A stretch of DNA of 64,000 nt from Rhizophagus irregularis (taxonomy: Eukaryota). The stretch is taken from NCBI RefSeq assembly GCF_026210795.1, contig NC_089431.1:4712001-4776000 (forward strand). Reading direction: 5' to 3'. The notes beneath the pieces are model-generated. The model ran no database searches. It was given only the letters and a program-made list of their open reading frames with translations, and was not told the DNA's origin. Position numbers and translations under genes: made by a program. Positions 26,049 through 44,942 of this stretch are shown here, one piece after another; within the stretch, counting starts at the first letter, position 1; the number at the start of each line of letters is the position of its first letter.

Positions 26049-26922
26049 AAAGCCTACTGATAAGAAAAAATCACAACTTGAAAGGCAGCGTATTATCTTT
26101 GAGGTTTTTATACAACTCTTAAAGCTTCTGGTTCAATCCTTCGTTAATGCTGTACCAAAAGAGACTGTTATATCTGCTTACAATGCTCTGAATGCTGAAT
26201 TCATTAATTATAAAGAACCAGTACTCAGTCAGCTTAAAGGAGAACCCTCAATAAAAACACGTGAAAAAGTTTGGGATAATGTTAAGGACCTTTTCACATC
26301 TATCCTTCATCCTATGATTTCAGTTGTAACTAATAGTATGGCTGCAAATTTAATCCGTAAAAATGATGATGTTATATGTAATAATGACTTATGGTCTTCT
26401 ATAGCAGGTATTGGAATTGTTAACCGCAAGTCTGCTAGTGATGTAGTCACTATTAAGACCAAAGTAGTCGCACCTGAGAGTGAAAAATCTTTAGTTATTC
26501 CTACGACAATTTTCGATACTGGTTCTGATAGTTCTCTGATATCTAACAATATTGTAAAGCGCCTAAATCTTGACGTTGATAGAAGTAATGCTCCTGACCT
26601 TAGTGGTGTTGCAATAAAATCTGATACTATTGGGACAGTATATGGTCTTGGTATTCTTGTATATGATGGGGAGAACTCTAAAAAAATTGAAGATGACTTC
26701 ATGGTTGTTAAGAGTGATAAGGACTTTTTATTGCTAGGTGTACCTTGGATTGATCGTGCTAATGTCATTCTAGATTTCCAAAATCGGCAACTGACCATCC
26801 CTCTATCATCACGTAAAAAAATTACCATTCCAATTTCTCTACATAAACGGAAAACTAACGTGACTTCCTTGCAGATGGATACTATCGACTTAAAAAAAAT
26901 TCACACTCTCGAGGAAGATTAA
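26020..26922 (+). CDS. Retropepsin-type aspartic protease, frame open from the A10 run at the end of gag (element A)
   Basis: IFDTGSDSSLIS and FLLLGVPWI; frame is stop-free from ~26020 into the annotated 26314 ORF. Confidence 0.88.
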   Translation, partial: KPTERKRVDKKPTDKKKSQLERQRIIFEVFIQLLKLLVQSFVNAVPKETVISAYNALNAEFINYKEPVLSQLKGEPSIKTREKVWDNVKDLFTSILHPMISVVTNSMAANLIRKNDDVICNNDLWSSIAGIGIVNRKSASDVVTIKTKVVAPESEKSLVIPTTIFDTGSDSSLISNNIVKRLNLDVDRSNAPDLSGVAIKSDTIGTVYGLGILVYDGENSKKIEDDFMVVKSDKDFLLLGVPWIDRANVILDFQNRQLTIPLSSRKKITIPISLHKRKTNVTSLQMDTIDLKKIHTLEED

Positions 26923-27041
26923 CCTGTCATCTATGTGGAGCAAGTTTTGACTTTCCCTCTAAGTTAAAGCGTCATCTTGCTAGGAAAAATCCATGTGTTT
27001 CCCAAACTTCTGCGGCAATGATGGGTAGTGGCGGGCAGTGA
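26889..27041 (+). CDS. Small C2HC/C2H2-type zinc finger ORF with no upstream ATG, in -1 frame behind the protease
   Basis: LTCHLCGASFDFPSKLKRHLARKNPC; overlaps the protease end at TTA AAA AAA ATT. Confidence 0.55.
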   Translation, partial: LKKNSHSRGRLTCHLCGASFDFPSKLKRHLARKNPCVSQTSAAMMGSGGQ

Positions 27042-27111
27042 CAGGGCAGTGCCCAAATTTTTTCGGCAGTGACGGGCAGTAACAGGGCAGTGCCCAAATG
27101 TTTTGGCAGTG
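27013..27111 (+). repeat. GGCAGT repeat cluster
   Basis: About seven GGCAGT(G) copies within two longer duplicated units, between convergent genes. Confidence 0.7.
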
Positions 27112-27128
27112 ATTAGCCTTTACAAATA

Positions 27129-27367
27129 TTACATTTGCCATGTTACTCTGATTTCTAGGTCTTTACGGGTTTCTATGAGTTTTTCAATGGCATTTTTATT
27201 TTTAAAATATCGACTATATCTGATATCTAGCTTTTGAAGGTTTGGTAATATATGCAGGATTTCACTTAGCAAATCTCTAACGTCACCTTTTCCACCATAG
27301 TATTGATAATCTATTATGCTAAGTTCCTGGATATTGGGGCAAGCTTGTAGCATTTTTACAATACAGA
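27129..27367 (-). pseudogene. 3' half of F-box/LRR-like gene of element A, split by element B
   Basis: CIVKMLQACPNIQELSI...LPNLQKLDI; joins in frame with 42664-42937 across the ACAGA TSD. Confidence 0.85.
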
Positions 27368-27854
27368 GTCGTCGGGCTGGTAGTGTAGTCACTAACGTTC
27401 CTCCACCTCGGCCAGGGCCTTGCAGTACCTACATCCCCCCTCCGTGGGGCAGGTTTACCTGCCACAGTACCATGGTCTGCCACGGTATTTTTCCACTTTT
27501 TTTTTTTTCTACATTTTTTCTTATATATAACTTACTATGACAACTATGGCAACTATGGCAGAGTACTTAAAAATGGAATAAAAACGCGAATAAAGCCGAA
27601 ATCAAACAGAATCTCCTGCCATAGTACCTGCCATAGTACGAAAAATCTTATAATAATACTATGGCAGCCTTAGTCAGCCCCTCAGACCCCAAAACCCGAT
27701 TCACGCTATGATTACCCTTTATATACTCACCTAGACCCTCCAAGTATGATTCCCTATGTCCTGAACTATGGCACCCGAACTATGGCAGCCGAACTATGAC
27801 CACTTACCCCGTCAGAAAAAATATATTCGGCAATTGAAGATTAGGTAACTATAA
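27368..27854 (+). repeat. Left TIR of element B (487 bp)
   Basis: Reverse complement of 42144-42658; contains ACTATGGCA repeats in both orientations and three 14-bp GAACTATG units. Confidence 0.93.
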
Positions 27855-27882
27855 ATTAGTACTCGATTTGATAGAACAAAAA

Positions 27883-30360
27883 ATGGCCGCTCAAGTTCCA
27901 GCAATCTTTAACCCCAACAACCGTTTCTTCTACGATGACCTTCTTAAAAAATGTGTAGGTACACACACGAAAGAAAGCGTCAATTCAGCAATCTTGGCTT
28001 CTGTGGCTTTCATCACCACAAAATCCGGCATGTGGATTAGAAAAAAGAAGGCTTACAATGGAAGCATATACTTCGAGTTCGCCGCAGATCTTAAGGGGAT
28101 TTCTACTAAGCACAAGGTAATTATTCGGTCAGATACCGGAGAAGACAGTGACGTGACCACATCCACCAAATTAAAGGATCTTCTTCTCCAAGCATCAATC
28201 GCAAAGATCTGTTATACAGATGTAAACTTCATGCCTTATCCCCCAAATGCGCCAAAGTATAATCCTGAATTCTTCAATCTCTTCCTAGGTTTCAGGGCCC
28301 AACCCGCTAAGCGCATCAAACCAAACCTAGTTAATCCAATCATCCGACACGTTCATGAGGTATGGTGTGCAGAGGACAAGCAATTAACTATATACATCCT
28401 CAACTGGCTCGCATTTCTAATTCAAAATCCAGACAAAAAACCCGGTACAGCAATTATCATGCGCAGTCCCCCCAGATGTGGTAAGAATATCTTAACCGAT
28501 TTTATCGGAGAACGTATTCTCGGCCGTGAAAATTTCCTCTCCACTACTCGTCTTGAAGATGTAATGGGAAGGTTCAATGTGGCTGTTCGTGCCAAAAAAC
28601 TTATCATCCTCAATGAATGCGATATGTCAGGCAAGGAATGGCACGGGGCAAACAACCGACTCAAGAGTTTAATCACCGAGCCTTACATCTCTATTGAGGA
28701 AAAGGGGATAGATGTGAAGGTTATTGATGACTTTGCTGGCTACATGATCCTCAGTAATCATGCTATGCCAATCCGCATAGAAATGGGAGATGAAAGATTT
28801 GTAGCTCTCAACGTCTCAGCCAAATATAAGGGCAATAGAGAATACTTCGGTTCTCTCGTAAAAGTATTAGAAAATCCGGATACAGCCAGTTCCTTCATGT
28901 CCTATCTACTTAGCCGAGACTTAACTGGCTTCAATCCCCGATCTATTCCTGATACTCAAATGAAACGGGAGTTAATTGAAGCAAGTATCCCGAATCCCCA
29001 GCGTTTTATACAATATTACCTTGAAATGATGTGGCCCGACAATTGCGACACACTTGAAATCCCGTGTACAAATTTCTATAGCACTTACCAGAATTGGTGC
29101 AGTGAGAAGGGTGAAAACAAAACACTAAGTGACAATAAATTCGGTATGGAGATTAAACAATTCGCCCCTAAAATGCGTGTAAGCCGCTCAGGTACCCGAA
29201 TAAACTATTACATACTAGATAAAGCAAAAATCGTGGAGAATTTTAGTAAAGTAATCCAAGATGTACAAGACGTACAGGAAGCACCAGTAGAGGGAGTAGA
29301 GTTAGTTGCCGAGAAACCCGCTGAGGAAAAACCCGCTGAGAAAAAACCCGAACCCGCTGAGGAAAAACCCACTGAGAAAAAACCCGAACCCGCTGAGGAA
29401 AAACCCGCTGAGAAAAAACCCGAACCCGCTGAGGAAAAACCTGCACCTGTAATTCGCAAGACTCCTCCACCACTTCCACCCAAGCCTGACCACTTAAAAG
29501 AACGTCCACAAGAGTTAAGAAAAGAACAACCAGATCCCGATGAAGATACTAATGAGTCAAACACCGATAAATCTATAGATAACTTTTCAGATTGTTATTT
29601 ATCTGACGAGGAACCCGACCAAGAAGAACCTATCCCCGAGCCAGATAACTACGACGTTTTAGATGACTTGCTATCTGACTCAGATTTTACAACTGTGAAC
29701 CCAGCTGCTGAACAACAACCCGAGTATCCCGCAGAATCTTCTGCATCTGTCACTAAGCCTGACCCAGAACCGGCTTCTGAAGAGCAATTTATCCCAGAAC
29801 CCGACACAGAACCAGAAGTTGACCGGGATCCTGAACCAAAGGAAGGCACTCGAGCGCACTGGGCTTGGCAAGAAAGACACCGATGGGATCGCAAACCATG
29901 GGTTAAAAATTTAAAGGACCAGGTCTTCAATGATCTCTACAATACAGGTAAGGAATTATGGGCCAAGTACCAAGATGCGTCAGACGAATATGACTGGGAA
30001 ATACTCGCGTTTGAAATAGAGGAATGTCCCACAACGCGTATTGAGGACGAGTACCAGTACTACCTTATGGAGGTAGTAGACCGCTTCAAGGACTGGATTG
30101 AATATAATGGATACTTACCTAAAATACCTAGCCGTAAAGAACTCGCAGATTTAATAAGAATATACAAGGAGAATCGTAATGCCGAGATTATTCCCACCCC
30201 CTCTGGTTATGAAACTATGAGGGCAGATAAGGGTAAAGCGCGAGAGATCCCCGAGGAACGTCCAAAAACTGATATGGAACGTGAATGGGAGGCCGCCAAT
30301 GGAATCATCGATGACTGGGACGAAGAGGATACTGAGGGCGCTATCAACGACATATTGTAA
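27883..30360 (+). CDS. D5-like/SF3-type helicase NTPase with winged helix and long acidic, Pro-rich tail (element B)
   Basis: FNLFLGF, WLAFLIQNP, SPPRCGKN (Walker A variant), LIILNE (Walker B), LKSLIT, ILSNH and ERF; PAEEKPAEKKPE repeats at ~29310-29445. Confidence 0.85.
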   Translation: MAAQVPAIFNPNNRFFYDDLLKKCVGTHTKESVNSAILASVAFITTKSGMWIRKKKAYNGSIYFEFAADLKGISTKHKVIIRSDTGEDSDVTTSTKLKDLLLQASIAKICYTDVNFMPYPPNAPKYNPEFFNLFLGFRAQPAKRIKPNLVNPIIRHVHEVWCAEDKQLTIYILNWLAFLIQNPDKKPGTAIIMRSPPRCGKNILTDFIGERILGRENFLSTTRLEDVMGRFNVAVRAKKLIILNECDMSGKEWHGANNRLKSLITEPYISIEEKGIDVKVIDDFAGYMILSNHAMPIRIEMGDERFVALNVSAKYKGNREYFGSLVKVLENPDTASSFMSYLLSRDLTGFNPRSIPDTQMKRELIEASIPNPQRFIQYYLEMMWPDNCDTLEIPCTNFYSTYQNWCSEKGENKTLSDNKFGMEIKQFAPKMRVSRSGTRINYYILDKAKIVENFSKVIQDVQDVQEAPVEGVELVAEKPAEEKPAEKKPEPAEEKPTEKKPEPAEEKPAEKKPEPAEEKPAPVIRKTPPPLPPKPDHLKERPQELRKEQPDPDEDTNESNTDKSIDNFSDCYLSDEEPDQEEPIPEPDNYDVLDDLLSDSDFTTVNPAAEQQPEYPAESSASVTKPDPEPASEEQFIPEPDTEPEVDRDPEPKEGTRAHWAWQERHRWDRKPWVKNLKDQVFNDLYNTGKELWAKYQDASDEYDWEILAFEIEECPTTRIEDEYQYYLMEVVDRFKDWIEYNGYLPKIPSRKELADLIRIYKENRNAEIIPTPSGYETMRADKGKAREIPEERPKTDMEREWEAANGIIDDWDEEDTEGAINDIL

Positions 30361-30444
30361 GCGCTATTTGAGATTATTTCTTTTTTTTTCGTATATATAT
30401 AGAAAGATATTATTTATAGTTGAAGACAAATCATATACATAAAA

Positions 30445-32297
30445 ATGCAATACTCAAGAATTGCCCGCACTTTACCAACACGACCTGACATCAAGGAACT
30501 TCAGTATTCCGGTGCTCGCTTTTCCAGAGGAGCTATCGCCAGACTCGGTCAGACTCTCCAGACGCGATTTCCAGATAGAAAGTTCCAGATCCTACTTCCC
30601 TATGAAAACTGGAAACCCGGTGGATGGACATCAGGAAACCAACCAGCCAGCCTCTTTTCACTATTAGACCATTATGATGAAGCACAACTACCGGATGACG
30701 CAGACCCTGATTATTTTGAACGATTCATAATTTATGCAAGAGATAGTCCACCGGCCGCAGGAGGATGCAATGGGGAGCTAAATGATTGCCTGTATGAATG
30801 CCTAAAAAATATTTACGGCACATTCTCTAAAATGCTAAAGTCAATCGAAAAGCCCGAGTATATCAAAAAGGCATTAGGTCTCAATCGCGATGCTCCCATC
30901 CCAGTTTCATGCATGGACAAGGTTGAACAACTCGCAGGAAGTCTCGCAATTAATATTGTGGGGGACATTACCCGAATCTCTAAGAGTAAGTCCGATAGAC
31001 GTGCGACTCTCATCCTATCAGAAGGCCATTACTCCCTCACGTTAAATCCTGGAAGACTCCACCCCAGTAAAATAGATAAAAAGCGTAATTTACCCATTGT
31101 ATACCATGAAGATGGGACCAATAATGTAGTCACAATATACAACGGCAAAACAGTTAAGTCTTGCACAATTGCGCAGTTTCAAAAAACTAAGAATTCCAAA
31201 AGTTCTTTCATCCCCGTCGAGAAAAACCGTAAGACTGGAGTATATGAAACTCTTGAAGAAGCATATCAGAGAATCCACGAGGAGCGGAATTCCTTTCTAC
31301 AGGAGACAAAGAAGTTCGGTTTAGGAATCGACTTATCATACCATAACTGGTCTTACAAAAGAACGGCTCTCTGGTTATTCGAACGATTAAGTGTAGGAAT
31401 TCCAGCCAATGATCCTCTTGACCCGATAGAAGCGGAGTGGTTAAGTGATGCAATGATGGGAGGATTAATCTGGGCAGATAACGAGTGGAAGGGCTATGGA
31501 AGACAGTATGACGCAACAAGTTTATACCCGAGTATCCAACAATCAAACGCGAACTTTCCAATCAGACGGGGTAAATTCCAGACACTTAATGACTTTGTCG
31601 ACCACAGGGGTTATGCCTTGTATGGATTATTCCGTGCCAAAATAAGTGGGAATAATATTCTCTTCCGACAGAATAAAAGGGGAATCTATACATTCATCGA
31701 CTTACAACGAGCAAAAAAACTTGGTCTCAATATACAGTTAATACAGGATGGGAAGCCAAATGCATTGATATATGATAGAGAAGCGAGAATCCCTGGAACT
31801 GTAATATTCGGTAAGTATGTACACTTCCTCTTCAAAATTAAAAACCAGGGTGGCATAGCTGGCCGCGTGGCAAAGCGAGTCCTCAACACATTATGGGAGC
31901 ATTATGCCAGAGGAAGCGTAATTACAAGACACTCACCACAGATCAAACAGATCCATTCAAGTTTCCAGAAGGCCACACACTTGACTCCATCGTACCAGTA
32001 GGATCTGACCAGTGGCGATTCCAGTTTACAAACCCGGGTAATCCCTTCAAAGGTGAGTATCCCAGGATCGCCCCATTCTTATTAGCACGTGGTCGCAAAA
32101 TCACATCTGAGGCAATTCAACCATACAAGGATAAAGTACGACGTATCCATACAGACGGATTTATTTTAGAAGAACAGCCAGATAGCCCCGCGGTTTTCAC
32201 TTGTTCAGAGAATGCAGATACGACTCTAAAGACTTTCAAGTTTGAAACCGCGGGATACTGCCATGTGAAAAATGCGAACAAGGTTATCTGGACATGA
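30445..32297 (+). pseudogene. Compact family B DNA polymerase (protein-primed-like), single frameshift near 31895 (element B)
   Basis: MGGL, YDATSLYPS (motif A), KRVLNTLW/GAL (motif B, split by frameshift) and IHTDGF (motif C); no clear exonuclease motifs. Confidence 0.85.
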
Positions 32298-32360
32298 TTG
32301 CTAGGGACCGGTATGTATATTTTTTACTGACATATCGTGATGGCATAATTGAATAAACCT

Positions 32361-32885
32361 ATGGGATATGTAATCTTACGAGATACCCAAATGCAAAACA
32401 CCGACGGATTAGGTAGACAAGACGACGAAAGTTTCCACGCGTGGGCTAAGCGCATTCAGAATGCTGTGCAATATTATGAGACTTGTAGTAGAATAGGTTT
32501 TCATAGGCGGCTACCTTATCCAAGGTCTCGTCAAGCTGTATATGCTTATATTGTGCACATTAGGAGAATAGTATCACGACTACCAAATAGGTGGTACTGT
32601 ACCTACTGTAAATCTTTTATTGATCGCAGATGGGGAGCTGACGCTTTCATGGATCAAGCGGTGCGACTACATTTATATAGTTGCCCAAAGCATTTTAATT
32701 TTGACTATTATACTCATCATGCTGAAATGATCCAGAATGCCTTTAGGAGATATATAGAAAGAAGGAACAATAAAGCGGCTAGGATAATCCAGAAAGTCGC
32801 TATCCCCTGGTTATATAGACCAGGCTCTCCATTGATGCAAAAGGCCGAGCGACGCTTCTACTGTCTTGCAGTATCCCAAGTGTAA
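32361..32885 (+). CDS. Hypothetical protein with Zn-finger-like CxxC..H..C and IQ-like motifs (element B)
   Basis: CTYC...HLYSC; MIQNAFRRY and ARIIQKVAIPWLYRPG. Start could be 32391. Confidence 0.6.
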   Translation: MGYVILRDTQMQNTDGLGRQDDESFHAWAKRIQNAVQYYETCSRIGFHRRLPYPRSRQAVYAYIVHIRRIVSRLPNRWYCTYCKSFIDRRWGADAFMDQAVRLHLYSCPKHFNFDYYTHHAEMIQNAFRRYIERRNNKAARIIQKVAIPWLYRPGSPLMQKAERRFYCLAVSQV

Positions 32886-32967
32886 ACCCCGAGGTTCATA
32901 TTTATTTTTTCTCATTCGAATGAACAGGTAACTGAAGATTTATATTTTTTACAAAGTACAAAGAATC

Positions 32968-33438
32968 ATGTCAACATATACCGAATTCGCAAGCATTGTT
33001 AACAGCACTGACAGCACTAGTGAGGAGGTTATTTACGAGGCATCGCGCATTCAGCCTAATGTTGTCTCTGACGAAACTGTCCCCAAGATTATCCGCGCAT
33101 TAAAAGATACTATAGTAATCGCATTAGTATCTGGGTTTAGCAAAACCAGTTACCTCGTCCAGGACCACGTGAAGTATATCAAGCGAATCCAAACGGCAAA
33201 TTCTCCTGTATCATATGTGAAGTTCGTGGCCAGAAAACTCTTCCCAGATAATGCGGCATATACTGCTAAAATAGCAAAAATCCGCGAATCATACAAGAAT
33301 AAACAAGCTCTCCTAGATAAGCTTGAGGCCCTCTTCGAATTGTATTATAATGCGACTAAGGACTCATCAACCGGTCTCCCAAAGCGAGCTATTACTAAAA
33401 ACGAGGCTGAGAAAACCTTAACAGAACTTCTTGCATAA
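32968..33438 (+). CDS. Hypothetical protein (element B)
   Basis: 156-aa intronless ORF, co-oriented with neighbours, upstream AACTGAAGA motif and downstream T-run. Confidence 0.7.
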   Translation: MSTYTEFASIVNSTDSTSEEVIYEASRIQPNVVSDETVPKIIRALKDTIVIALVSGFSKTSYLVQDHVKYIKRIQTANSPVSYVKFVARKLFPDNAAYTAKIAKIRESYKNKQALLDKLEALFELYYNATKDSSTGLPKRAITKNEAEKTLTELLA

Positions 33439-33547
33439 GCGGCTCCTGTGGTCCTACGATTCTGTACGAATTTAGTCTATATTTTTTATCCATATGTAAT
33501 AGGCATACAGTAATTGAAGATAGCTATAGTATAAGTAACATAACATC

Positions 33548-33952
33548 ATGTTGGACCGATTACCAGTAGAAATAGTCGAACGCATTGTCGCAAAGATCCC
33601 AGATACTGACCTTATTGCAGCGAGTAAGGTAGATAGAGTGTGGTGGCAGGAAGTTCGTCGAGAGGCATATAAGAAGTGGAAAAATTATGCCACTACGATC
33701 GGGGATGTGTACTGTGAAATCCGAGCTCTCGGAAAGCATTATATAAAGAGGGAAATTGACTGGATAACGTTTGAAGATGTAAACGACCTCTATAAAAGAT
33801 GGATAAACCGCCTCACCGAGGATCAGCTTTATATTATGGAGAAAATGCTTAGGAATGGGATGGTCGTGGACCCCCAAGAGAGGGAAACCATAGAGCATGC
33901 ATTAAGTGAACAAAGATGGGGAGGCGATCCTTGGAGACTGGGAGTGGTATGA
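33548..33952 (+). CDS. F-box protein (element B)
   Basis: MLDRLPVEIVERIVAKIP...ASKVDRVW F-box pattern. Confidence 0.8.
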   Translation: MLDRLPVEIVERIVAKIPDTDLIAASKVDRVWWQEVRREAYKKWKNYATTIGDVYCEIRALGKHYIKREIDWITFEDVNDLYKRWINRLTEDQLYIMEKMLRNGMVVDPQERETIEHALSEQRWGGDPWRLGVV

Positions 33953-34377
33953 ATGGACTCAACAGGAGTAAGCATTTTGTACTTGACTTTCGTAGGAATT
34001 ACCCTGCAGAGTCATATTTTTTAGATCCGGCCGGCATTACCGCGTAATCCCGAATTACCGAAAAAGGAAATTTATGTTACACAAGATTCCAAACGCATTT
34101 TTACCAAAATCGATTTTTTGTGGAACTGGTATCGCCCAAAAAGGAAATGATCTACGTACCACATGAAGTCACGTGACACTCTACACATTTGTTCAGGGTA
34201 TCACGTGACATGAACTCCGTTCACATTTTCTGTAATATAATCCATAGTTTTTCCATGAATGCTTTTTAGGCCAATAATCCAATAACTTATTCATCAGGTA
34301 TCCTCGTGCTTTGCGACAAGGACTGATGACCATGTAACCTCATCATCAGGCATCCTCGCATTTTTTGACAAGGACTG

Positions 34378-35286
34378 ATGACGATGTCACTTGGTTATTG
34401 TAAATTGAAGATAACAATTAGGTATGTAGACACGTACAGAAAAAAGACATGTACATACCCTTATATAACTAATCCTATAACCGGACGTCCAATCCGTGTT
34501 GGTGGAGATACCTTTAATCGAATAGTTATGGAATCCCATGATTATATCGATGGAAGGCTTGTCCGTAGACAAACCGTACCGCCTCCACCCCAGGAACAAC
34601 CTGTATATTTAAATACAGATACAGGACGCTATATTCAACACGGTACTAGAACGTATCATAGACTGGTTGAGAGTGACTACGAGGTAGTTGAGGACTACTA
34701 CCTTGTTCATTCTGAAGAGGAGGAGCTTATAGAGGAAATCATCAATGAAACACGCTATAATGAGGAAAATCTTGATGGCCAGCGGTTAACTTTCAATAAT
34801 ATACAACAAATCAGAGCCGCTATTCAAGCTGACCAAGATGAATATGATGATTTTATCTTACAGCAGAATACGACTAACGGGACACCTTCCTCCGGTCCTT
34901 CCGGTCGTCCACGAACTTTGGAGGACCATGCCCCGAGACTTGCAGAGCTTAATATTGAGTTGTGTAGGGAATGTCTCATGCCTGTAAGCTAAGGTTGCTT
35001 GCCGAAACCTAGGGGTTTAGGCAAGATGGCGTTTCGCCGAAAAGCGAAATTCTGGCGAAACTATATTAAAGTTATATTAAAAAACTGGCGAAACTTTAGA
35101 GAAAGGCAAAACTGCCGAAACTTATTATAAATGCCGAAACTGCCGAAACTCTGCCGAAACTATAATAAATCTATAGTAAAATTTTGACGAAACTAATCGT
35201 AGGATTTTGAAGAGGTTTAGACAAGCAACCTTACTGTAAGCCCAAGTGACTTAACGGACAAGTTGTGCAAGGACTGCGCTTCCTAA
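34378..35286 (+). pseudogene. Protein with two NPxTGRxI-type repeats and a C-terminal C4 zinc finger, interrupted by a hAT MITE (element B)
   Basis: NPITGRPIRVGG and NTDTGRYIQHG; removing the MITE gives CRECLMPVSPSDLTDKLCKDCAS*. Start uncertain. Confidence 0.75.
34990..35233. mobile_element. hAT MITE (244 bp)
   Basis: TIR TAAGGTTGCTTG, 8-bp TSD CTGTAAGC (34982-34989, 35234-35241), GCCGAAAC subterminal repeats. Confidence 0.92.
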
Positions 35287-35448
35287 TGGTCAGTCCTCCG
35301 GTCCTCTGGTCTTCCGGTCTTTCCAACGGTTGATCCCATTAATGCCAGTTATTTTTTTTTTATACAAATGACAGGTATTTAAAGATAACAATATATAAAA
35401 AAGATTGTGAAGGATACTAAGTGAGTGAATAATCAAAGAAAGATAGCC

Positions 35449-36000
35449 ATGTCAACATCAATCGTAATAAACCAGTGTCAGAACTGTGGAGTATTCTCTG
35501 CAAAAGCGGCATATAGAGGATTATCCAGCGTGTTGTATAGACAGATTATAAAGAAGATTGGTGACGAGAGTGAACCTTTACAAGCCTTGGGACTTGCCAG
35601 GGATAAGTTGGTCCAGATTATCCGTCGGGCAAGTAATGCGGATTTTACACAATTATTCACACAAAGACTAGATATGAAAATTATGGACGGAGATTCATAC
35701 GAGGATACTAGGAAGTGGCTTCTTGAACAGCTTATAGCCATTGGATGTGACAGTGGGGAAATTGCCTTATATCAGTTCTTACGGAATACATACCCGGATG
35801 GTATTGACGAACCCTTTACTACATTCTATGAGAACTATGTAAATCATGTAAGAAATCCGATGACTAAGAACTTTGCTTCTCGAGCCTTAGGAGCTATTGG
35901 ATTAAAAGCTAGGATGCTACGGATTGACTTCGAAGGACGTAAAAAAAGCGCCATGATTCTTAGGGCTTCTGCGGAAGAACTTCGCGAGATGGGTTGCTAA
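35449..36000 (+). CDS. Hypothetical protein, possible C-terminal winged helix (element B)
   Basis: EPFTTFYENY...MTKNFASRAL resembles the D5-type C-terminal wHTH of the neighbouring helicase (weak). Confidence 0.6.
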   Translation: MSTSIVINQCQNCGVFSAKAAYRGLSSVLYRQIIKKIGDESEPLQALGLARDKLVQIIRRASNADFTQLFTQRLDMKIMDGDSYEDTRKWLLEQLIAIGCDSGEIALYQFLRNTYPDGIDEPFTTFYENYVNHVRNPMTKNFASRALGAIGLKARMLRIDFEGRKKSAMILRASAEELREMGC

Positions 36001-36013
36001 AGCAACCAGATTC

Positions 36014-37204
36014 TTACAAAATACTATTGATCCCTACTCGTAATGCTCGACGGTCCATATGACCCTTAGAAAAGATCTGTAAAAGGACCCCGATGCCTTC
36101 TATTATTTTTTTATTATCCAAAGGGTGACTAGACTTCAGGACTTCATATCGGAAGAATAACTCCTTTACGGTCTCAGATTTTGGAATTTCAGTCTTCGCG
36201 GTCCTATCCCGTACTTTCGCTAAGAAGTTTTGGAAGTCTGATCCCAGGGTCTTACCAGATAATCCGTAGGCTTCCCGAAAGACGTACTTAATCCAGGTAT
36301 CTGCGTTCTTAGCTATAATACCAGATACGAGGAGGTGTTTTCTCTCTTTAGGCGATGGATATTCCCGAGCAAACTCAATTAGCTGGAAGGACTTTTTTGC
36401 TTCAGCTACAGCTTTTTGGCCATAAGGACTAAACTTTGATCGAACTGGGTTCAAACTCGGATCGAACGGGGATTGAACTGAGTTCGAACTAGAATCGAAC
36501 TGAGATTGATCAGTGATCGAACTGAGACTAGTATCCCATCTAACCCGAATGGATAACGGATCGCTCTTGGATCTTCTAAGATCAAACACTACAAATTCAC
36601 GTTGCAGAGTAAGATCATCAATTACTGGTGCTAATGACTCTGATTCTTCTGTATATAGGCGGATGATTCTCTTAGTATCGGTCAAACTTCCGTGACCTCC
36701 ATGTAGGGAAATATAATTCACATTTTCACGAATAGCCTTGGGAATGGTAAAGAATCTTTGGGCCACATAAATACATGAAATATTTTTGGTTCGTCCGTGT
36801 GTAAAAAATCCAGTGATGAGATCCTGGGTTTTTTTAGGCGCATCCATCAAATCCTTGAAGATTACCACAGTAGCCTGGGTGGAGTTGAAGTCCTTAACAT
36901 TTGGAATCTCACTATGGGATACTGCGGTAAACGGAATTTCTTCTTCTTTGAAAAAATCACGTACGACTGCCCACTTCGGTTCATCGAGGTATCTGCCAAC
37001 TAGAATTACCGCATCACATAATATGTACCTTTCGCCATCCTCCTTTGCCTTCTTGTCTCCCATTAACAAATTAATAATCATAGTTGTCTTACCCGAGTCA
37101 GAACTTCCTGCTACGGCAAGACGGAAAGGCCATGATGGGGCAAACTCATTACCCTGTCTCGAGTCGGTCGTGTACTCGTCCAAATTGTATACATAAAGAT
37201 CCAT
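36014..37204 (-). CDS. A32/FtsK-HerA-like DNA packaging ATPase (element B)
   Basis: GSSDSGKTT (Walker A), VVIFKDL (Walker B variant), THGRTKNIS, AQRFF and IPKAIRENVNY. Confidence 0.88.
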   Translation of the reverse strand: MDLYVYNLDEYTTDSRQGNEFAPSWPFRLAVAGSSDSGKTTMIINLLMGDKKAKEDGERYILCDAVILVGRYLDEPKWAVVRDFFKEEEIPFTAVSHSEIPNVKDFNSTQATVVIFKDLMDAPKKTQDLITGFFTHGRTKNISCIYVAQRFFTIPKAIRENVNYISLHGGHGSLTDTKRIIRLYTEESESLAPVIDDLTLQREFVVFDLRRSKSDPLSIRVRWDTSLSSITDQSQFDSSSNSVQSPFDPSLNPVRSKFSPYGQKAVAEAKKSFQLIEFAREYPSPKERKHLLVSGIIAKNADTWIKYVFREAYGLSGKTLGSDFQNFLAKVRDRTAKTEIPKSETVKELFFRYEVLKSSHPLDNKKIIEGIGVLLQIFSKGHMDRRALRVGINSIL

Positions 37205-37235
37205 TTGAATTTTATTCTATCTTAGTTTAAATACG

Positions 37236-39418
37236 ATGTCGACACCAATTGCAATTTATACTCCTTCAGAGCCTACTGGACCGCCTCCTAGGGATTTGCG
37301 TGATATGAATAATATACCATTAGTTGCGGTAATTAAGGATCTAACAGATTTTTTAACTGTCAGTGATCGCATGGTTGTTAATCGAGATGTACAAAATGCA
37401 AATCATCGTCTTAAACATGCTCTTAATTTATTAATTCATCGCTGTAGAGAAACATACGAAGAACGCGATATATTAAAAGCGGAACGTGATCGATCTCGAA
37501 AAGAACGTGATGAATTACAAGATGAACTCGAGGTTCAAACGGGTTTGTTAGGTCTTACACAAGATGAGCTAAATAACGTACAAGATACTATTACTAGTTT
37601 AGAAGCTAATTTGGCTGAATTGGAACGTGAGTTTGGTGGTATGCGGACGACTAATCGTCGTCTTCAGCAGCAATATAATCTTATGAGAGGAGAACGTAAT
37701 AGAGCTATAGGTGAACGTAATAGAGCTATAGGCGAGCGTGATGTGGCACGAAATCGGCTTGTATATGCCAATAATCGGGTTCTTTTTGGAATTCGGACAT
37801 TGGGACGTCTTAGGAATCGACTTTTCCAACAAATAGCCGCTCTGCGTATCCAAGTACAATGGTTTCGGATTAGACAATTGAACCTTCCTCCACCTCCTCT
37901 CAACCATTCACAAAATACGATATGGCTGCCGTTGGTATAGCTGCCCCCATATTTCATGGTCGGGAAGATGAAGATCTTAATCTTTTTATTGATAACTTTT
38001 TAGGGTATATTAATACCGTTGGTATTGATCCATTGGACGATGCCGGTGCACCTCCTGGTCGGGTGCGAGCGATGGGGGTTCTTCGTAGCTGTATGAGAGA
38101 TGAAGCGGCGAGGTGGTTTGATGCAGAACTTACTGGAAAAAATTGGGAACTCTCGAATATTCGGTTAGTGGCTACTGCAAATGGTGGAGCCGGTGCTACT
38201 CGCCGAGCGTTCAGAGCTTTAGCTGTTCCTGAGGTTGCTAATGGATTACATGTTGGTACTTACTTACCCGGGTCTGATGTTGATGCATATTCAAGGATTT
38301 TAGCTAATGCGGCGAGAACCGTTGGAGAAACATTTTTCCCATCACGCGCTGATATCGTTAGAACGAATTTTAAAGTTGAAGAGCAGTGGAGGCGTGCGGG
38401 CGGACGTCCTACTCATCAACCCGTTAATGGGTTGGGAAATCATGGAGGTCCATTTAATGCTGCTGTCCAGAATCAACCAATAGTCTTACAGGGGATTCTC
38501 CTGGATCAAGCATTTATGCATATGCGTACAAATTTTCCAACCGTCGTGGAAGAAAGACTTCAAATACGATTTAGTAACCTTTACCAGGAACAAGGTGAAC
38601 CTGTTCGATCTTACTATAAGCGAGTTGAGAGGGCTGGGGATATTGTAGGATATAATCGAATTATGGTTACTGACCAGTTCTATAGAGGACTTTTGCCGGA
38701 AAACGTTATTGAAGCTTCCAGAATCGGGGCGGCACCTCTTAATACATTAATCGATAGATTGAGTGATCTTGAGCGACGAAAGGGCAAAATGTTCTATGGA
38801 TTACAAAGGCGTCAGGGTATTGAAAAGGCTAAAAAAGAGGAATTGGCTGGCTATACTCATCCCGTGACTCCACACGAAGGTGCTGTAATACAAAGGTCGA
38901 CAGACGTTATTACTCAAGAACGATTACAAGAATTGCTCAAGGCACAAGCCGAGGAACTTACCAAGAATTTCCAGGCACAATTTAAACAATTACAAGCATC
39001 TAAGCCAGTTCGTAAACCACCGGTCTATAGACAACAGATTAAACCTGTTCGGCCAAAGCCACGGCCACGCGTTGTTCAGGATCATCAGGATCCTGATTGG
39101 GATGATGGTTATGTAGATCATAATTTTGGTGATGACCCTGGTGACCCTGATGCTCCTGAGTGGACTAGTGAGGATGATCAACATGTTATTGATCTTATTA
39201 TGGGATATGAGACGTCTAAAAGATTTCCAAAGAGACTTCAGAAGGCTAAAGATAGACGCGATGATCTGGAATTAGCCCGAGCAATGAGAAACCTCGATCT
39301 TAATGATGATGCTATGGATATTGATACTAATACCGCGAGTTTTGATGACTTGAAAATTGTTCCCGATGAGGAAGGTGGTTTTCGGATTTGTGCGGTTCGA
39401 AGTACAAAAAAAAAGTAA
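37236..39418 (+). CDS. Gag-like polyprotein (coiled-coil part 37236-37940, capsid part 37922-39418; probably one ORF broken by a 1-nt indel near 37895) (element B)
   Basis: PIFHGREDEDLNLFIDNF, MRDEAARWF, QEQGEPVRSYYKRV (MHR-like) and DQFYRGL; collinear with the fused element A Gag; no zinc knuckle. Confidence 0.82.
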
Positions 39419-40137
39419 ACTCGGATAAGGGTGTAAGTATCTCGAAACTTCTTAAATCTGTTCCAAAAAAATCAGTTAAAATGACTCCTATTAAGATTCC
39501 TGTGAAGGTTACTAGTAGTAAGCCCACACTTATAAAAGCCGTCACCAAAAATGATTCATTAAGTTTATTAAGGTCTGCAGATTTTAGAAAATTACTCCGC
39601 GAGATTCTTCGGGAAGAATTAAAGTCTGCTCGTAAAAGTACGGAGATTCCGGAAGACCTAGTTGAAGAAAAACAAGAAGAGGATATCAGGGAAGATGACC
39701 CGATGGATATTGACATAGCTCGTTTGGAGAATACTAAAGATCTTTTAGCACTGGATGGGAAGGTCAATGGGATAGCAATTCAGTGTTTAGCAGACACTTG
39801 TGCTAACGCGTCTTTTATTCAGAGGGAAGCCGCTGAAGAATTAGTGTTGGATATCGACAAGAGTATTACACATAACATATCCGGCGCTCCGGGTTCTGAT
39901 AGGACATTTGGCATGGTAAAAGGTGTGTCAATCAAACTAACCCCTGATTGTGTAATCACTGAGAATCTCGCGGTTTTAAGCGATTACAAGCATAGGGAGA
40001 TTGGATTGAGCCGGACGTGTCTGAAACGTTACAATTATGATGTCCATGAATCACGTGAACATATTGCCCTTACTTGTAATGAGAAGAATGTTTTTATCCC
40101 AATAGTTTCTGACGTGAATCGAGGAGACAAAAAATAG
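39388..40137 (+). CDS. Retropepsin-like aspartic protease in -1 frame to gag, atypical DTC active-site motif (element B)
   Basis: VNGIAIQCLADTCANASFI; overlaps the gag end at A AAA AAA AAG TAA. Confidence 0.8.
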   Translation: MCGSKYKKKVNSDKGVSISKLLKSVPKKSVKMTPIKIPVKVTSSKPTLIKAVTKNDSLSLLRSADFRKLLREILREELKSARKSTEIPEDLVEEKQEEDIREDDPMDIDIARLENTKDLLALDGKVNGIAIQCLADTCANASFIQREAAEELVLDIDKSITHNISGAPGSDRTFGMVKGVSIKLTPDCVITENLAVLSDYKHREIGLSRTCLKRYNYDVHESREHIALTCNEKNVFIPIVSDVNRGDKK

Positions 40138-40151
40138 GGAATATTTATTTT

Positions 40152-41279
40152 TTATTCCCAAAACTTGCGGATTAAGGCAGGGACATCCTCCTCCAACCGG
40201 TCAGCGGGTTCCCAAGTGGCTTCGGTATCTGGGTATCGTTCCCACTTGACTAGATACTGGTCTTGACCCTTCCTGATGCGATGCCGGAGTATCCGCTCAG
40301 GTACAAATCTTTCGGGTTGCCCTCTTATCACGGAGTCAGGTGGGGGATGTTCATTTTCTGGAACAATCTGCAACTCTTTTCGGGTGTACGCACATCTGGA
40401 TACACCTAGACGCCCGTGTGGTCCATCAAGAAGATACGTAGGAGGCTGTTCGGGTGAGAGGATCATTTTTTTGATGACACGGATATTGGGATTCCATCTT
40501 ATGTCACCTGTACGAAATTTTCTATGGAGTTTATTCCCGAGTACTGAAATAGGTTCGTCTAACTTGACTCGGACATGTGTTCCTTCAGAGAGAAGTTCCG
40601 TCTTTTTTGACACTTTGGGTGACCCTGTCGGAATGTCTGGGGGATTTCTCTGCCAGATTTCATCTATTTTATTAACTACATCACGGAAATCTTCTGACCA
40701 TTCCACGGATGTCACCCCGGTCTTCAACTCCTGTGCCACCATTCGTTTTAGGAGAGGTTCCTGGATTGCTTGGATGGCTCGTTCAGCGTATGATTGCTGT
40801 TTGTGTCTTCCTGGTTCGCCGAACCTCATCATCACCCCTAGGCTGTTCAGGAAAAAATCACGTACCTGATCATTAGTGAATTCTGATCCGGAGTCTGTCT
40901 CTATTCGATGTGTTGGTGGCTTAATGCGATTTCTTCTGTAGATTTTAACAAATCCATTGAGAACCTTATTTGCGGTTTTATCCTTTAGGGGTTCTGCATC
41001 GACTTGTTTACCCGTGACTTCCACCACTACGAGGAAATAGTGGAATCCTTTGGGATCGACTGGCATCTCTGCAAGATCTGCCTGATGTGTTGCATTTGGT
41101 TTCCATACAACTACTCGTGGACGCTCTGATGACTTCTCCTTTAGGGGCTTTTTATATAGGTTGTAGTGCTCCTCACCTTTTAGAATTCGTGCCGGTACTC
41201 TGGAGAGATTGTAGTATTTGTAGTAATTCTCTAAATGCGACATATTACGACAAATTAAAGGAAAGATTTCAGACTTCAA
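40152..41279 (-). CDS. rve (DDE) integrase with C-terminal chromodomain (element B)
   Basis: HQADLAEM, ETDSGSEF and AERAIQ; FVPERILRHR...YLVKWERYPDTEATWEP chromodomain. Confidence 0.92.
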   Translation of the reverse strand: MKSEIFPLICRNMSHLENYYKYYNLSRVPARILKGEEHYNLYKKPLKEKSSERPRVVVWKPNATHQADLAEMPVDPKGFHYFLVVVEVTGKQVDAEPLKDKTANKVLNGFVKIYRRNRIKPPTHRIETDSGSEFTNDQVRDFFLNSLGVMMRFGEPGRHKQQSYAERAIQAIQEPLLKRMVAQELKTGVTSVEWSEDFRDVVNKIDEIWQRNPPDIPTGSPKVSKKTELLSEGTHVRVKLDEPISVLGNKLHRKFRTGDIRWNPNIRVIKKMILSPEQPPTYLLDGPHGRLGVSRCAYTRKELQIVPENEHPPPDSVIRGQPERFVPERILRHRIRKGQDQYLVKWERYPDTEATWEPADRLEEDVPALIRKFWE

Positions 41280-41287
41280 ATCTTAAG

Positions 41288-41608
41288 ATGACACGATTTT
41301 ACTGCCTAAAGTGTAAGAAGGAAACCGAGACTGCTAGTGAAATACAAGATATGACCACAAATGGCCGCTATCGTTTACATGGTGACTGTGTAGTTTGTGG
41401 GATGCATAAGAATACTTTTACTGGGATAGACTGGGTTATCAAAAAGAAAACCAAGGAGAAGAAAAAAGAAACTGCGGCTAAAAGACATCAGATGGCGTAC
41501 AATCGGCAATGCAAAAAACTCGGGCAGAAAATCTTAGATTCTGATGACACGTGTAAGCAGTGTATTGATAAATGCCTTAAGGAGGCAAAAAAGAGGAAGA
41601 CGGATTAG
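41288..41608 (+). CDS. Small zinc-ribbon protein (DUF5679-like) (element B)
   Basis: MTRFYCLKCKK...TNGRYRLHGDCVVCG..KNTF; ATG at 41288. Confidence 0.75.
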   Translation: MTRFYCLKCKKETETASEIQDMTTNGRYRLHGDCVVCGMHKNTFTGIDWVIKKKTKEKKKETAAKRHQMAYNRQCKKLGQKILDSDDTCKQCIDKCLKEAKKRKTD

Positions 41609-41617
41609 TACCGCCTT

Positions 41618-42133
41618 CTAAAAGTATTCCTCATCATCTGAGTCATCGAGAGATACCTCTCCATCATCTGATTCATCATCCGAGTCATCAGGAGTGCGAC
41701 CTTCCTTAAGCAATTGGATGTTGTACGTTATTTGAGTCCATTTCTCCCAGTCAGACTCTTGCGTTATAAAGCCGCATCTGAGGAGTGCTCTTTCTATTAC
41801 TACCATCCCTGCAAACCTGGTGTATTTTTTCTGATCGGCTTCATTGAAATTGTCAATGGCTTCTTTGTAGTAGTCTACTGCCTGTTTGTATACCTCTTCG
41901 GCTTCTTTATGCCGCTTCCACAACTCGGCTTTACAACAGTTATACCAGAGTCTGTTAATCTTGAGATGTTTTCCGAATTCTTTAACCGGAAGGTTTCTGA
42001 CCATCTCTGCTACTATGTCTGGGTCATTGAGGGGTGATGCCTGAATTTGGATCCATTTACGGATTCCATAGATGTCTACAAGATCAAGCCCGAGGTCTTC
42101 GGCAAGAGAAGTGGCGGCGTGTAAGTTTATCAT
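41618..42133 (-). CDS. F-box-like protein with acidic tail (element B), homologue of 18207-18650
   Basis: DPDIVAEMVRNLP...LKINRLW; LWKRHKEAEE; DDSDDESDD tail. Confidence 0.7.
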   Translation of the reverse strand: MINLHAATSLAEDLGLDLVDIYGIRKWIQIQASPLNDPDIVAEMVRNLPVKEFGKHLKINRLWYNCCKAELWKRHKEAEEVYKQAVDYYKEAIDNFNEADQKKYTRFAGMVVIERALLRCGFITQESDWEKWTQITYNIQLLKEGRTPDDSDDESDDGEVSLDDSDDEEYF

Positions 42134-42143
42134 TGTATGTTAC

Positions 42144-42658
42144 TTATAGTTACCTAATCTTCAATTGCCGAATGTATTTTTTCTGACGGGGGTAAGTGGT
42201 CATAGTTCGGGTGCCATAGTTCGGCTGTCATAGTTCGGCTGCCATAGTTCGGGTGCCATAGTTCAGGACATAGGGAATCATACTTGGAGGGTCTAGGTGA
42301 GTATATAAAGGGTAATCATAGCGTGAATCGGGTTTTGGGGTCTGAGGGGCTGACTAAGGCTGCCATAGTATTATTATAAGATTTTTCGTACTATGGCAGG
42401 TACTATGGCAGGAGATTCTGTTTGATTTCGGCTTTATTCGCGTTTTTATTCCATTTTTAAGTACTCTGCCATAGTTGCCATAGTTGTCATAGTAAGTTAT
42501 ATATAAGAAAAAATGTAGAAAAAAAAAAAGTGGAAAAATACCGTGGCAGACCATGGTACTGTGGCAGGTAAACCTGCCCCACGGAGGGGGGATGTAGGTA
42601 CTGCGAGGCCCTGGCCGAGGTGGAGGAACGTTAGTGACTACACTACCAGCCCGACGAC
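42144..42658 (-). repeat. Right TIR of element B (515 bp)
   Basis: Reverse complement of the left TIR with five instead of three 14-bp units. Confidence 0.93.
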
Positions 42659-42663
42659 ACAGA

Positions 42664-42937
42664 TAGGCCATAATAATACTCCATCCATATTAAGCTTTCT
42701 GATATATTTTCCACATACTGTCCCTGGTTTTGTGAGATGTTTGTACATTTGGAACTCCTTAATATTATAGAGGTTATAAAGGTCTGTTTCACCCCATAGG
42801 AGAGAGTTTGCTACTACAGCCCATTTTCGACACACTAATGCATAATTGCAAAGATAATGCCAACGGGAGTAAGTACCTTCATATGAAGTTTTGAATATCT
42901 TTTCTAAAAGTTCGAAAGGTAAGCTATTGTTTGTCAT
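42664..42937 (-). pseudogene. 5' half of split F-box gene of element A
   Basis: NSLPFELLEKIF...ALVCRKW F-box; ...LLWPIC continues as IVKMLQAC at 27362. Confidence 0.88.
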
Positions 42938-43041
42938 GGTATCTCATATGAGATATTGATGAAGAAGTTTTATTTAATTAGATTTTTTCTTAGGATAAAA
43001 TAATTTGAACATTTCTTTTCTATCAATAGAAAAAACCAGAC

Positions 43042-43833
43042 ATGCTTACTTTTAGTGAACTTACTCCATCTCTTACTGTTACTGAATTTAAGATCAATGT
43101 TGAAGGGCTTGATTACACCGTGCTTGGTCATAAGCTTGAACCTACTAAGGATGTTATTGCCATTAATAGCAACTTTATTCATAAAGCTTTTGAGGGTTAT
43201 GAACAGTACTTGTCTAAACCAAAAGGTGAGAGGCGATGCAGACGAAGTACACCTGACAATCCATTAAATAGACGGCGACGTACAGGGGATGGTAGCACTT
43301 TTAATGCATGCATTGAGTTTGTTATCATCTTAGCTGATACTGTACATACTATTCGTTATTTTCCTAAATCTGGTAGTATACAAGTTTTCGGGTCTTTTGA
43401 TCCTGTTGCTATCTTCTTACGTTACCTTTCTGAATGTTCCCTACCTGAATTTTCTTCTGTAGAACTTGTGGGTGAAAATAAGGCTCTCCTGCGCAATTAT
43501 AAATTTGTGATTAATATTGGGGGTGATAAGTTTATTAATCTTTCTACCTTAGCATATGCTTTAGAATCTATAGATGGTATTCGTGAGATTCTTCCCTTTC
43601 CGATAAAGTATATTAAGAATGATGCAGGTGATATTCATTCTAAAATTGCTATAATCTTTACTTCAAAGATTCGGGTACATATCTGGCCTAAATCTGGTAA
43701 GGTTAATATATTTGGCACTAAGACTGAATTGGATGCTGATATGGTTTATAAGTTCTTACAGAAGTTGTTTTCTAATCCATATAATTTTGGAGATTTTATT
43801 TGTGATGCACCTATTCCAGATTGCGAGAGGTAA
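43042..43833 (+). CDS. Viral-type TATA-binding-protein homologue (ASFV B263R-like) (element A)
   Basis: Two TBP-like repeats IRYFPKSGSIQVFG and VHIWPKSGKVNIFG; AINSNF, GDGSTFN and PIPD match my recollection of asfarvirus B263R. Confidence 0.85.
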   Translation: MLTFSELTPSLTVTEFKINVEGLDYTVLGHKLEPTKDVIAINSNFIHKAFEGYEQYLSKPKGERRCRRSTPDNPLNRRRRTGDGSTFNACIEFVIILADTVHTIRYFPKSGSIQVFGSFDPVAIFLRYLSECSLPEFSSVELVGENKALLRNYKFVINIGGDKFINLSTLAYALESIDGIREILPFPIKYIKNDAGDIHSKIAIIFTSKIRVHIWPKSGKVNIFGTKTELDADMVYKFLQKLFSNPYNFGDFICDAPIPDCER

Positions 43834-43853
43834 AAAAATGGTTTCACTGAAAA

Positions 43854-44537: not shown

Positions 44538-44561
44538 CTTGTAAGTCTTTTATATGTGAAT

Positions 44562-44942
44562 CTTTTATTCAATTACATTTTTTCTCGGTATAAGGGAAAT
44601 TGCTTGCCTTGCTATTCCGCTCTATTGACTCCATGGCTGGTTTCCTGGATGGGTTAATATTTCCTTACCTTTTTTGGCTCCGTTGGCTTTGAAATCCTAT
44701 TTCTTGTTCGGTTGGGGGTAAGTAGGTGAAAATATTAATAAATGATTTAGATTATGAAATAAGTAGGATATAAGTAGGTGAAAATATTAATAAACGGTTT
44801 AGATTATGAGATAAGTAGGTAAAAATATAAAAAAGGTGATTTAGGTTATAAAATATGTAGCATATAAGTAGGTGAAAATATTAATAAACGGTTTAGATTA
44901 TGAGATAAGTAGGTGAGCCAGAATTGGGGTTTTCATACTACT
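44562..44942 (-). repeat. Right TIR of element A
   Basis: Reverse complement of 17787-18167; ends TACTACT. Confidence 0.95.

Follow-up and report, generated by a model that had tools for sequence, protein, structure and literature searches.

Results

Two elements, one inside the other

We analysed a window of 64,000 nucleotides of Rhizophagus irregularis (contig NC_089431.1 of assembly GCF_026210795.1, positions 4,712,001 to 4,776,000 of the forward strand; positions given below count from the first letter of this window). It holds two integrating DNA elements, A and B, both of which encode Gag together with a retropepsin, and neither of which has a reverse transcriptase (RT). Element B (27368..42658; 15,291 bp), with a mavirus-type replication kit, lies within element A (17787..44942), which is of the animal Polinton type and measures 11,860 bp once B and one copy of its target site duplication (TSD) are subtracted. 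The TSD of B is ACAGA (27363-27367 and 42659-42663), that of A is AGAGG (17782-17786 and 44943-44947), and both stop at 5 bp with no extension to 6 bp. Long terminal inverted repeats (TIRs), an rve integrase and a 5-bp TSD are thus present in both elements. The TIRs of B (left, 27368..27854, forward strand, 487 bp; right, 42144..42658, reverse strand, 515 bp) agree at 484 of 486 aligned bases and open with GTCGTC, so that the element ends read GTCGTCGGG...CCCGACGAC. Those of A (17787..18167, forward, and 44562..44942, reverse) are 381 bp long, 379 of them identical, and give the termini AGTAGT...ACTACT. The TIRs of A and B have zero similarity by blastn. Polinton termini follow the rule 5'-AG...CT-3'. 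A conforms to it, whereas B has GT...AC, as had been predicted; these ends are real. The 5-bp TSDs had been regarded as unusual, but the range for mavirus and Mavericks/Polintons is 5-6 bp (PMC8547959; here and below, statements on published work refer to the excerpts of each source that were available).

B is nested in A and splits its F-box gene. This open reading frame (ORF) starts at 42937 on the reverse strand and has 93+77 = 170 aa that are open once B is removed. Its 5' half (42659..42937, reverse, 93 codons) and its 3' half (27129..27367, reverse, 77 codons, the start being derived from the codon count) are severed by B, and the intact version is spanned by contigs of public sequencing runs. 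Chance estimates are ~0.0015 for the match of a 5-bp repeat and ~0.0035 for 77 codons staying open. The original prediction of a second family nested in A, with TIRs of its own and a 5-bp TSD, is borne out by the TIRs, the TSD ACAGA and the split F-box ORF. Nesting by itself and GT...AC ends are ordinary.

Six of 24 listed public sequencing runs were examined for the locus, all as assembled (Logan) contigs, which break at the element ends and whose depth is not a copy number. The joint 27362>42659, with 15,296 nt skipped and 5 shared letters, is present in X1, X3, X6 and X14 (4/4 runs, from 4 studies), and a single 6,751-nt contig of X14 spans it with 863 and 727 nt on either side. The empty site of B is also found in X7, hence A occurs without B in five of six runs; run X2 has a gap right of the end of B and is uninformative on this point. 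In X6, X7 and X14, where the TIR of B is present, the depth immediately right of the end of B equals that of the empty-site contigs, and the ends of B continue into different flanks in X2 and X14. Among the pieces listed (32 of 165 in one listing), no contig spans the A/B junction and the composite was not seen to recur; the case for its being real is therefore made by this window, the TSD and the split gene. The suggestion to look for A and B apart proved fruitful, with an uninterrupted F-box gene in A in those five runs and B-type genes found without A. A single element of 27 kb, for which the composite could be mistaken as had been foreseen, is ruled out by the separate TIRs and TSDs, the split gene and the empty-site copies of A. 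The exact TIR patterns gave no match in viral_contigs and metagenome_contigs. In X2 and X14 one end of B matches about 6 letters of the flank (42659-42664) and then diverges, by chance or through target preference, and one X2 contig carries a diverged TIR variant (42631-42658) with the GAC end kept.

Genes of the two elements

B encodes, in this order, a superfamily-3 helicase (S3H; D5-like, DUF5906 by Pfam; 27883..30360, forward), a compact family B DNA polymerase of the protein-primed type (pPolB, or PolB) without exonuclease (30445..32297, forward) and small ORFs of 174, 156, 134 (F-box-like), 204 and 183 aa (32361..36000, forward). These are followed by an A32-like packaging ATPase (36014..37204, reverse; Pox_A32, E 1e-8), a coiled-coil ORF (37236..37940, forward) and Gag (37922..39418, forward), whose start overlaps the coiled-coil ORF at GATATGGCTG, which is identical in the soil contig L008. 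Gag is predicted to adopt a two-domain capsid (CA) fold whose N-domain holds an insertion of ~120 aa; it lacks a CCHC knuckle and ends with A9G plus a stop. The retropepsin-type protease (39370..40137, forward; aspartic protease, E 8e-7) lies in the -1 frame of Gag. The element closes with an rve integrase carrying a C-terminal chromodomain (40152..41243, reverse; Chromo E 8.6e-18), a DUF5679 ORF (41129..41608, forward; Pfam) and an end ORF (41618..42133, reverse). The helicase, ATPase, chromo-integrase and short PolB that had been predicted for B are all there, but the list was incomplete, since Gag, the retropepsin and the F-box gene had been overlooked.

The genes of A begin with an end ORF (18207..18563, forward) homologous to that of B (38% over 50 aa). 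Its pPolB (18773..22669, forward) has vOTU-like and exonuclease motifs, the latter read directly in the sequence, and is cut short by a stop codon (22004-22006) that lies upstream of motif C. There follow an rve integrase (22666..23724, reverse; by Pfam, with no chromodomain match), a Gag made of a coiled coil, CA and a CCHC knuckle (23712..26048, forward), with a premature stop at 25413-25415 that is absent in the related protein P0308, and a retropepsin-type aspartic protease with DTG (26014..26922, forward), which overlaps the end of Gag at an A-run. To the right of B lie a TBP-like ORF (43042..43833, forward), with a feature score of 0.93-0.94 to TBP clusters, the nearest being viral, and no Pfam TBP match, and an acidic ORF (43854..44537, reverse) with no family match. 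No helicase or ATPase was found in A by Pfam. The gene content expected of A (proofreading-type PolB, TBP-like ORF, CCHC Gag, neither helicase nor ATPase) is therefore confirmed. The complementarity of the two gene sets is not: both carry PolB, integrase, Gag and protease, and because B also has Gag, a retropepsin and an F-box gene the sets overlap more than they complement each other.

At 25980-26050, where there is a 10-A run, the protease of A takes the +1 frame relative to Gag (-1 in B), which may reflect a change of homopolymer length in this copy. Around the homologous end ORFs, two short stretches of DNA (18339-18687 in A, 41587-41920 in B) are 85-86% identical between the elements; lying towards one end, they are a hint that A and B exchanged genes at a later time.

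No double jelly-roll major capsid protein (MCP) was found in A or B, where every forward gene-sized ORF of at least 300 aa belongs to another family, and the MCP of a related viral contig (L032, below) has no match in the window (best E 3.6, outside A and B). Among the small ORFs of B there is no Pfam match to a penton or an adenain/Ulp1 protease, and no tblastn match to the candidate penton of L032.

A Gag-protease module shared by A and B

The Gag of B is an ORF of 498 aa, homologous to the Gag of A (28-30%) and with the same N-domain insertion. It has 162 relatives at E<=0.001 (50%-identity clusters), a separate search of phages gave no confirmed relative, and Retrotrans_gag is matched at E<=0.05 by 31 of 55 aligned family members. 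We modelled its first 300 residues (pLDDT 90, pTM 0.82). When this model was compared with known structures using VIA-align, the first 36 of 50 listed rows were retroviral, retrotransposon or domesticated CA proteins, e.g. that of murine leukaemia virus (MLV; Z 9.1, rmsd 4.1, 181 aligned) and the dArc1 capsid (Z 7.8, rmsd 3.7, 152 aligned). In this listing an unrelated fold first appears at Z 4.7, several of the CA matches cover both domains, and all rows listed by Foldseek are CA proteins. We thus confidently predict, on the basis of this model, that the Gag of B has the two-domain CA fold of retroviruses. The ~120-residue insertion is conserved to the same degree as the core. A PDB sequence search with a Gag-protease (Gag-Pro) profile gave a weak match only, in the protease region (E 0.0065). 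RT and RNase H have no Pfam match in any ORF scanned, the YxDD motif is absent from 38 long Gag relatives, and among the repeat families listed no long direct repeats flank Gag-Pro as long terminal repeats (LTRs) would.

Our survey of Gag comprised 144 representatives, of which 35 span the CA region. A K[KR][KR]-stop terminus is found in 9 of the 11 full-length B-like Gags, and within the final 6 residues in all 11. The CCHC knuckle is absent from all 22 B-like rows and present in 4 of 13 A-like rows, many of these rows being partial. The Gags of A and B form separate deep branches.

B-type PolB was found in 31 metagenome loci, most of which are too short to judge gene linkage. The one locus that extends far enough, the soil contig L008 (11 kb), preserves the order and orientation of B for Pol, ATPase, coiled coil, Gag, Pro, chromo-integrase and DUF5679, at 33-66% identity. 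It also retains the overlap of coiled coil and Gag and the A9G-stop with the protease opening in the -1 frame. L008 deviates from B in that the F-box ORF is relocated and a stop in Gag leaves two ORFs. Three of the small ORFs of B have the same order in L006 and L008, and the A32 ATPase is kept in the B-type elements L006, L008 and L018. As far as these sequence comparisons tell, the Gag-Pro module is old and fixed. The picture differs in the IMG/VR contig L032, which has a B-type Pol (32%), a chromo-integrase (39%), a helicase and an ATPase, together with a jelly-roll, NCLDV-like (nucleocytoplasmic large DNA virus) MCP (TM 0.75-0.81) and a candidate penton. L033 and L034, also from IMG/VR, have a mavirus-type Pol, chromo-integrase, helicase and ATPase. 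There is no Gag or Pro match in these three IMG/VR loci with B-type Pol (L032-L034), each cut at a 10-kb flank. L031, whose edge carries a fragment of Pol, was set aside as an unrelated locus. As single queries, the ATPase and the integrase of B gave no confirmed relative in viral_contigs.

Two dissimilar polymerases, both broken here

The PolB of B had been described as reduced. It is instead a conserved enzyme of the mavirus type: the 35 full-length B-type PolBs that we selected from genomes and metagenomes have 617-648 aa, which leaves no room for an exonuclease, and conserve the cysteine and histidine of vOTU as well as motifs A (YD..SLY, the D being present in 34/35), B and C, with NTLW and TDG. 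Such conservation rules out that PolB is decayed across the B family. The intact form closest to our copy, P0121 (617 aa, 96%), has a PF03175 match. The top viral match of the structural model in Foldseek is the pPolB of mavirus (617 aa, E 4e-27), the next being at 2e-8; the model itself is weak (pLDDT 61, pTM 0.37). Mavirus also lacks the PolB exonuclease and has a separate S3H (PMC11161782). The closest named relatives of the A PolB outside Rhizophagus are animal proteins (~39-49%), and its relatives carry PF03175 (protein-primed family B polymerase). The PolBs of A and B show zero BLAST similarity to each other. In a 6-row unrooted tree of integrases, B groups with viral contigs and is distant from A, which has a long branch. 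Proteins 96-99% identical to the B Gag, the B PolB and the A PolB carry the label Rhizophagus irregularis.

Both PolBs are broken in the composite, and neither element can thus supply a polymerase to the other here. The stop in the PolB of A falls at a position that is open in 19 of 19 alignments to relatives spanning it. In B the reading frame shifts near 31894, a position at which most of the contig depth has one extra base; the shift may be genuine or may stem from misassembly of a short run of G.

Discussion

Proposed Gag capsids in elements without reverse transcription

Elements of this kind are already catalogued. Judging from its domains and the mavirus match, B is very likely a member of the fungal lineage of pMVRE group 1, with which it shares a palm-only pPolB, a DUF5906 helicase, rve, a chromodomain, DUF5679 and TIRs, and which counts many 13-16-kb elements in Rhizophagus clarus and others in Diversispora and Gigaspora (Wei et al. 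2026, PMC13215967). In the parts of that publication available, the lineage is said to lack viral structural proteins and to consist of likely plasmids; 'gag' occurs 0 times in the main text, and supplement 5 records DNA_pol_B_2 with Asp_protease_2 (6) and with Retrotrans_gag (8). Compared with the group as published, Gag is here one of the fixed genes, and its predicted fold is that of CA. An MCP-less Polinton of Glomus intraradices/Rhizophagus is also known (PMC7805220). The legend of Fig. 5 in PMC8502044 (2021) lists Gag, retropepsin, TBP and S3H; the section itself does not discuss a capsid swap and leaves the element unnamed, and the supplement and figures may describe A or B further. A32 ATPases in fungi were pointed out once more in 2026 (10.64898/2026.06.19.733378). 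Our literature search gave no paper arguing for a Gag capsid in these elements, and such a capsid is unmentioned in the available excerpts of PMC4028283, PMC11296320, PMC11075540, PMC5751038, PMC3671162, PMC6431247 and 10.1101/697771. What seems new is the shared Gag-Pro, a putative structural module that conflicts with the 'plasmid' label.

Each element resembles known systems in part. B shares with mavirus and mavirus-like virophages the vOTU exonuclease-less pPolB, S3H, rve integrase, packaging ATPase and 5-6-bp TSD (PMC11161782, PMC8547959), but it has Gag and a retropepsin; no jelly-roll MCP was found in it, and no penton or Ulp1-type protease recognised. Features that A has in common with Polintons/Mavericks (Polintoviricetes, adintoviruses) are an animal-Polinton-like pPolB, an rve integrase, TIRs with AG...CT ends and a TSD of 5 bp. 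The differences from this group are that neither MCP nor ATPase was found in A and that the ends of B are not AG. With Ty3/gypsy (Metaviridae), retroviruses and caulimoviruses the two elements share the two-domain CA, the retropepsin and a slippery Gag-Pro overlap, to which A adds the CCHC. Unlike Ty3/gypsy, no RT, RNase H or LTRs were found in A and B, their DNA polymerase is protein-primed, their integrase gene runs on the opposite strand and the CA N-domain has its ~120-aa insertion. Caulimoviruses hold ~8 kb of dsDNA inside a Gag-derived shell. Bidnaviruses offer a parallel in joining a polinton pPolB to an unrelated capsid (PMC11161782), but there the pPolB entered a ssDNA virus derived from parvoviruses, whereas here the capsid would be of retroelement origin and the genome integrates.

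We think it probable, though well short of certain, that B is an independent multi-copy integrating element inserted into A, and that A and B swapped a jelly-roll module for a shared retrotransposon-derived Gag-protease which forms a particle. The swap is suggested by L032, which has the same replication genes but a jelly-roll MCP and no Gag/Pro match, and a swap common to two lineages by polymerases that have no BLAST similarity in elements whose Gags are nonetheless homologous and share an insertion. The ancestors of the two, mavirus-like for B and Polinton-like for A, would have lost the jelly-roll module, and one Gag-Pro from a retrotransposon would have passed between the two lineages long ago. 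The terminal-protein/vOTU/palm polymerase of B would prime at the GTCGTC ends; the doubled triplet that opens both elements would suit slide-back protein priming. A separate helicase would unwind the DNA of B. Gag would be made in excess and Gag-Pro by -1 frameshifting at the A9G-stop, upon which the protease would mature the CA shell. Since the Gag of B is without a zinc knuckle, it may be the A32 ATPase that fills this shell with the 15-kb dsDNA of the element, and the integrase would later insert B with a 5-bp stagger. A, which has the CCHC knuckle and no ATPase, may instead co-assemble with its nucleic acid. The frameshift signal, the protease and the retained ATPase together argue for a particle. 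A jelly-roll helper capsid is not evident in the genome, as no MCP was found in R. irregularis, from which an asfar-like giant endogenous viral element without MCP, A32 and D5 is reported (PMC10640383, in the part available). The nesting would then be an opportunistic pile-up in a repeat-rich locus and not a partnership. The fuller proposal, which we are slightly more inclined to doubt than to accept, is that these are RT-free integrating dsDNA viruses of arbuscular mycorrhizal fungi, in which Gag capsids from Ortervirales were swapped into two Varidnaviria-derived lineages, the ATPase of B pumping dsDNA and the Gag of A co-assembling.

Several points weigh against a Gag-based particle acquired in this way. 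The Gag of B has itself no Pfam match, its model has no PDB match at E<=0.001 by Foldseek (best 0.008), and Z values of 8-9.5 are middling for a helical protein. The complete linkage from Pol to Gag is found in one distant contig only (L008), where Gag is split, and the contrast between CCHC and ATPase is drawn from two lineages and not from many events. The loss of the exonuclease is deduced from motifs, length and the mavirus match, because the PolB model is poor. The Walker B motif of the ATPase is altered in this copy of B (FKD, versus FED in L008), and we know of no example in which an A32 ATPase loads a CA lattice. Among the small ORFs there could be a penton or a cysteine protease that has diverged. 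The direction of the swap and its donor are inferred, the trees having no outgroup, and both the particle and the use of the frameshift are predictions from genes and models.

Might Gag-Pro be maintained in both elements without packaging their DNA, the elements moving as naked transposons or linear plasmids? Gag may then package the RNA of the element as Arc does, serve the replication and integration complex as a scaffold or carry it between the nuclei of the coenocytic hypha, or poison resident LTR retrotransposons. This is compatible with all the conservation data, with the absence of a knuckle from the Gag of B, with the presence of the domesticated CA proteins PEG10, Arc, PNMA2 and Drt2 among the structural matches and with the description of the fungal lineage as probably plasmids in the available part of PMC13215967. 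Yet a restriction factor has no need of a protease, or of a conserved frameshift that sets the Gag:Pro ratio, and the A32 ATPase, whose known role is genome packaging, is kept in the three B-type elements named above. We thus deem this, the chief rival, rather unlikely. That Gag-Pro would be the dead remains of LTR retrotransposons inserted into capsid-less Polintons we find hardly credible. Both Gag-Pro blocks do adjoin an rve integrase, and there are stops in the Gag of A in this copy and in that of L008. But RT, RNase H and LTRs were not found, the integrase gene runs on the opposite strand and that of B groups with viral contigs, far from that of A (in the 6-row unrooted tree), position and overlaps are unchanged at 33-66% identity, and many full-length members of this deep family have open frames. 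A nested LTR retrotransposon was likewise rejected, given that no RT, RNase H or LTR was found and that the position is conserved.

The two remaining alternatives concern the nesting. The original prediction considered B as a possible hyperparasite or complementing partner of A, targeting it and sharing functions with it. B did land in A, A is without helicase and ATPase while B is without exonuclease and TBP, and the homologous Gag-Pro and the short stretches of 85-86% identity suggest that the two exchanged genes. However, empty-site copies of A are found in five of six runs and no listed contig spans the junction of the composite, L008 has the gene set of B and zero A-specific genes, and the loss of the exonuclease goes along in mavirus with the gain of a helicase of its own (PMC11161782). 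A partnership is thus very improbable, and complementation in particular finds no support: each family has its own Pol, integrase, Gag and protease, each occurs alone, and both PolBs are broken in this copy. A chromodomain that steers B to silenced chromatin, of which A would be an example, is compatible with a swapped capsid and would account for the nesting only. The strong Chromo match, in which aromatic cage residues are seen by eye, is in line with it, as are the CpG observed/expected ratios (0.46-0.55 in A vs 0.91 in B), the two stops of A, both TGA followed by CG as methylation-driven decay predicts, and the four nesting levels of the locus. This is nevertheless a single locus, A also landed in a decayed repeat without having a chromodomain, and survival bias yields the same picture. 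Targeting by the chromodomain is thus conceivable, but we consider it somewhat doubtful.

The Polintons of Glomus/Rhizophagus are a standing example of capsid loss (PMC7805220, in its available part). If Gag is their capsid, the virion was swapped and not abandoned. There would then be Gag shells without reverse transcription, with a capsid from another virus realm that is possibly loaded by an ATPase. Two questions become testable, namely how DNA elements of large size pass from one nucleus or strain to another in these coenocytic symbionts of crops, and whether 12-15 kb of dsDNA can fit inside a CA lattice. In annotation, the 27-kb composite needs to be divided into its two elements, and matches to Gag and protease at this locus do not equate to LTR retrotransposons.

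Surroundings of the locus

B itself contains a miniature inverted-repeat transposable element (MITE; 34990..35233, 244 bp) with 14-bp TIRs and the 8-bp TSD CTGTAAGC, which we take to be hAT-like given the length of the TSD. It is skipped in contigs of 4/4 runs, and the depth over it is well above that of the rest of B in X3 and X6. A is inserted in a decayed ORF beside a foldback element, so that the MITE lies within B, B within A and A within the decayed ORF. The latter (15969-17786 and 44948-46300) resembles the ORF1 of a long interspersed nuclear element (LINE) by eye, has no Pfam match and is broken by A and by the foldback element (~16470-17440).

The flanks are AT-rich, with kinase and Sel1 genes. 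The window opens with a tandem array (1-2270; 11% GC, units of ~90 bp). A 33-bp tandem repeat at 48824-50316 has open frames of ~460 aa on both strands, and an AIG1/MMR_HSR1-like GTPase lies at 53424-54242 on the reverse strand. Further right, a ~300-bp repeat recurs several times, in either orientation (56381-63706), and there is an imperfect inverted-repeat element (~59700-62930).

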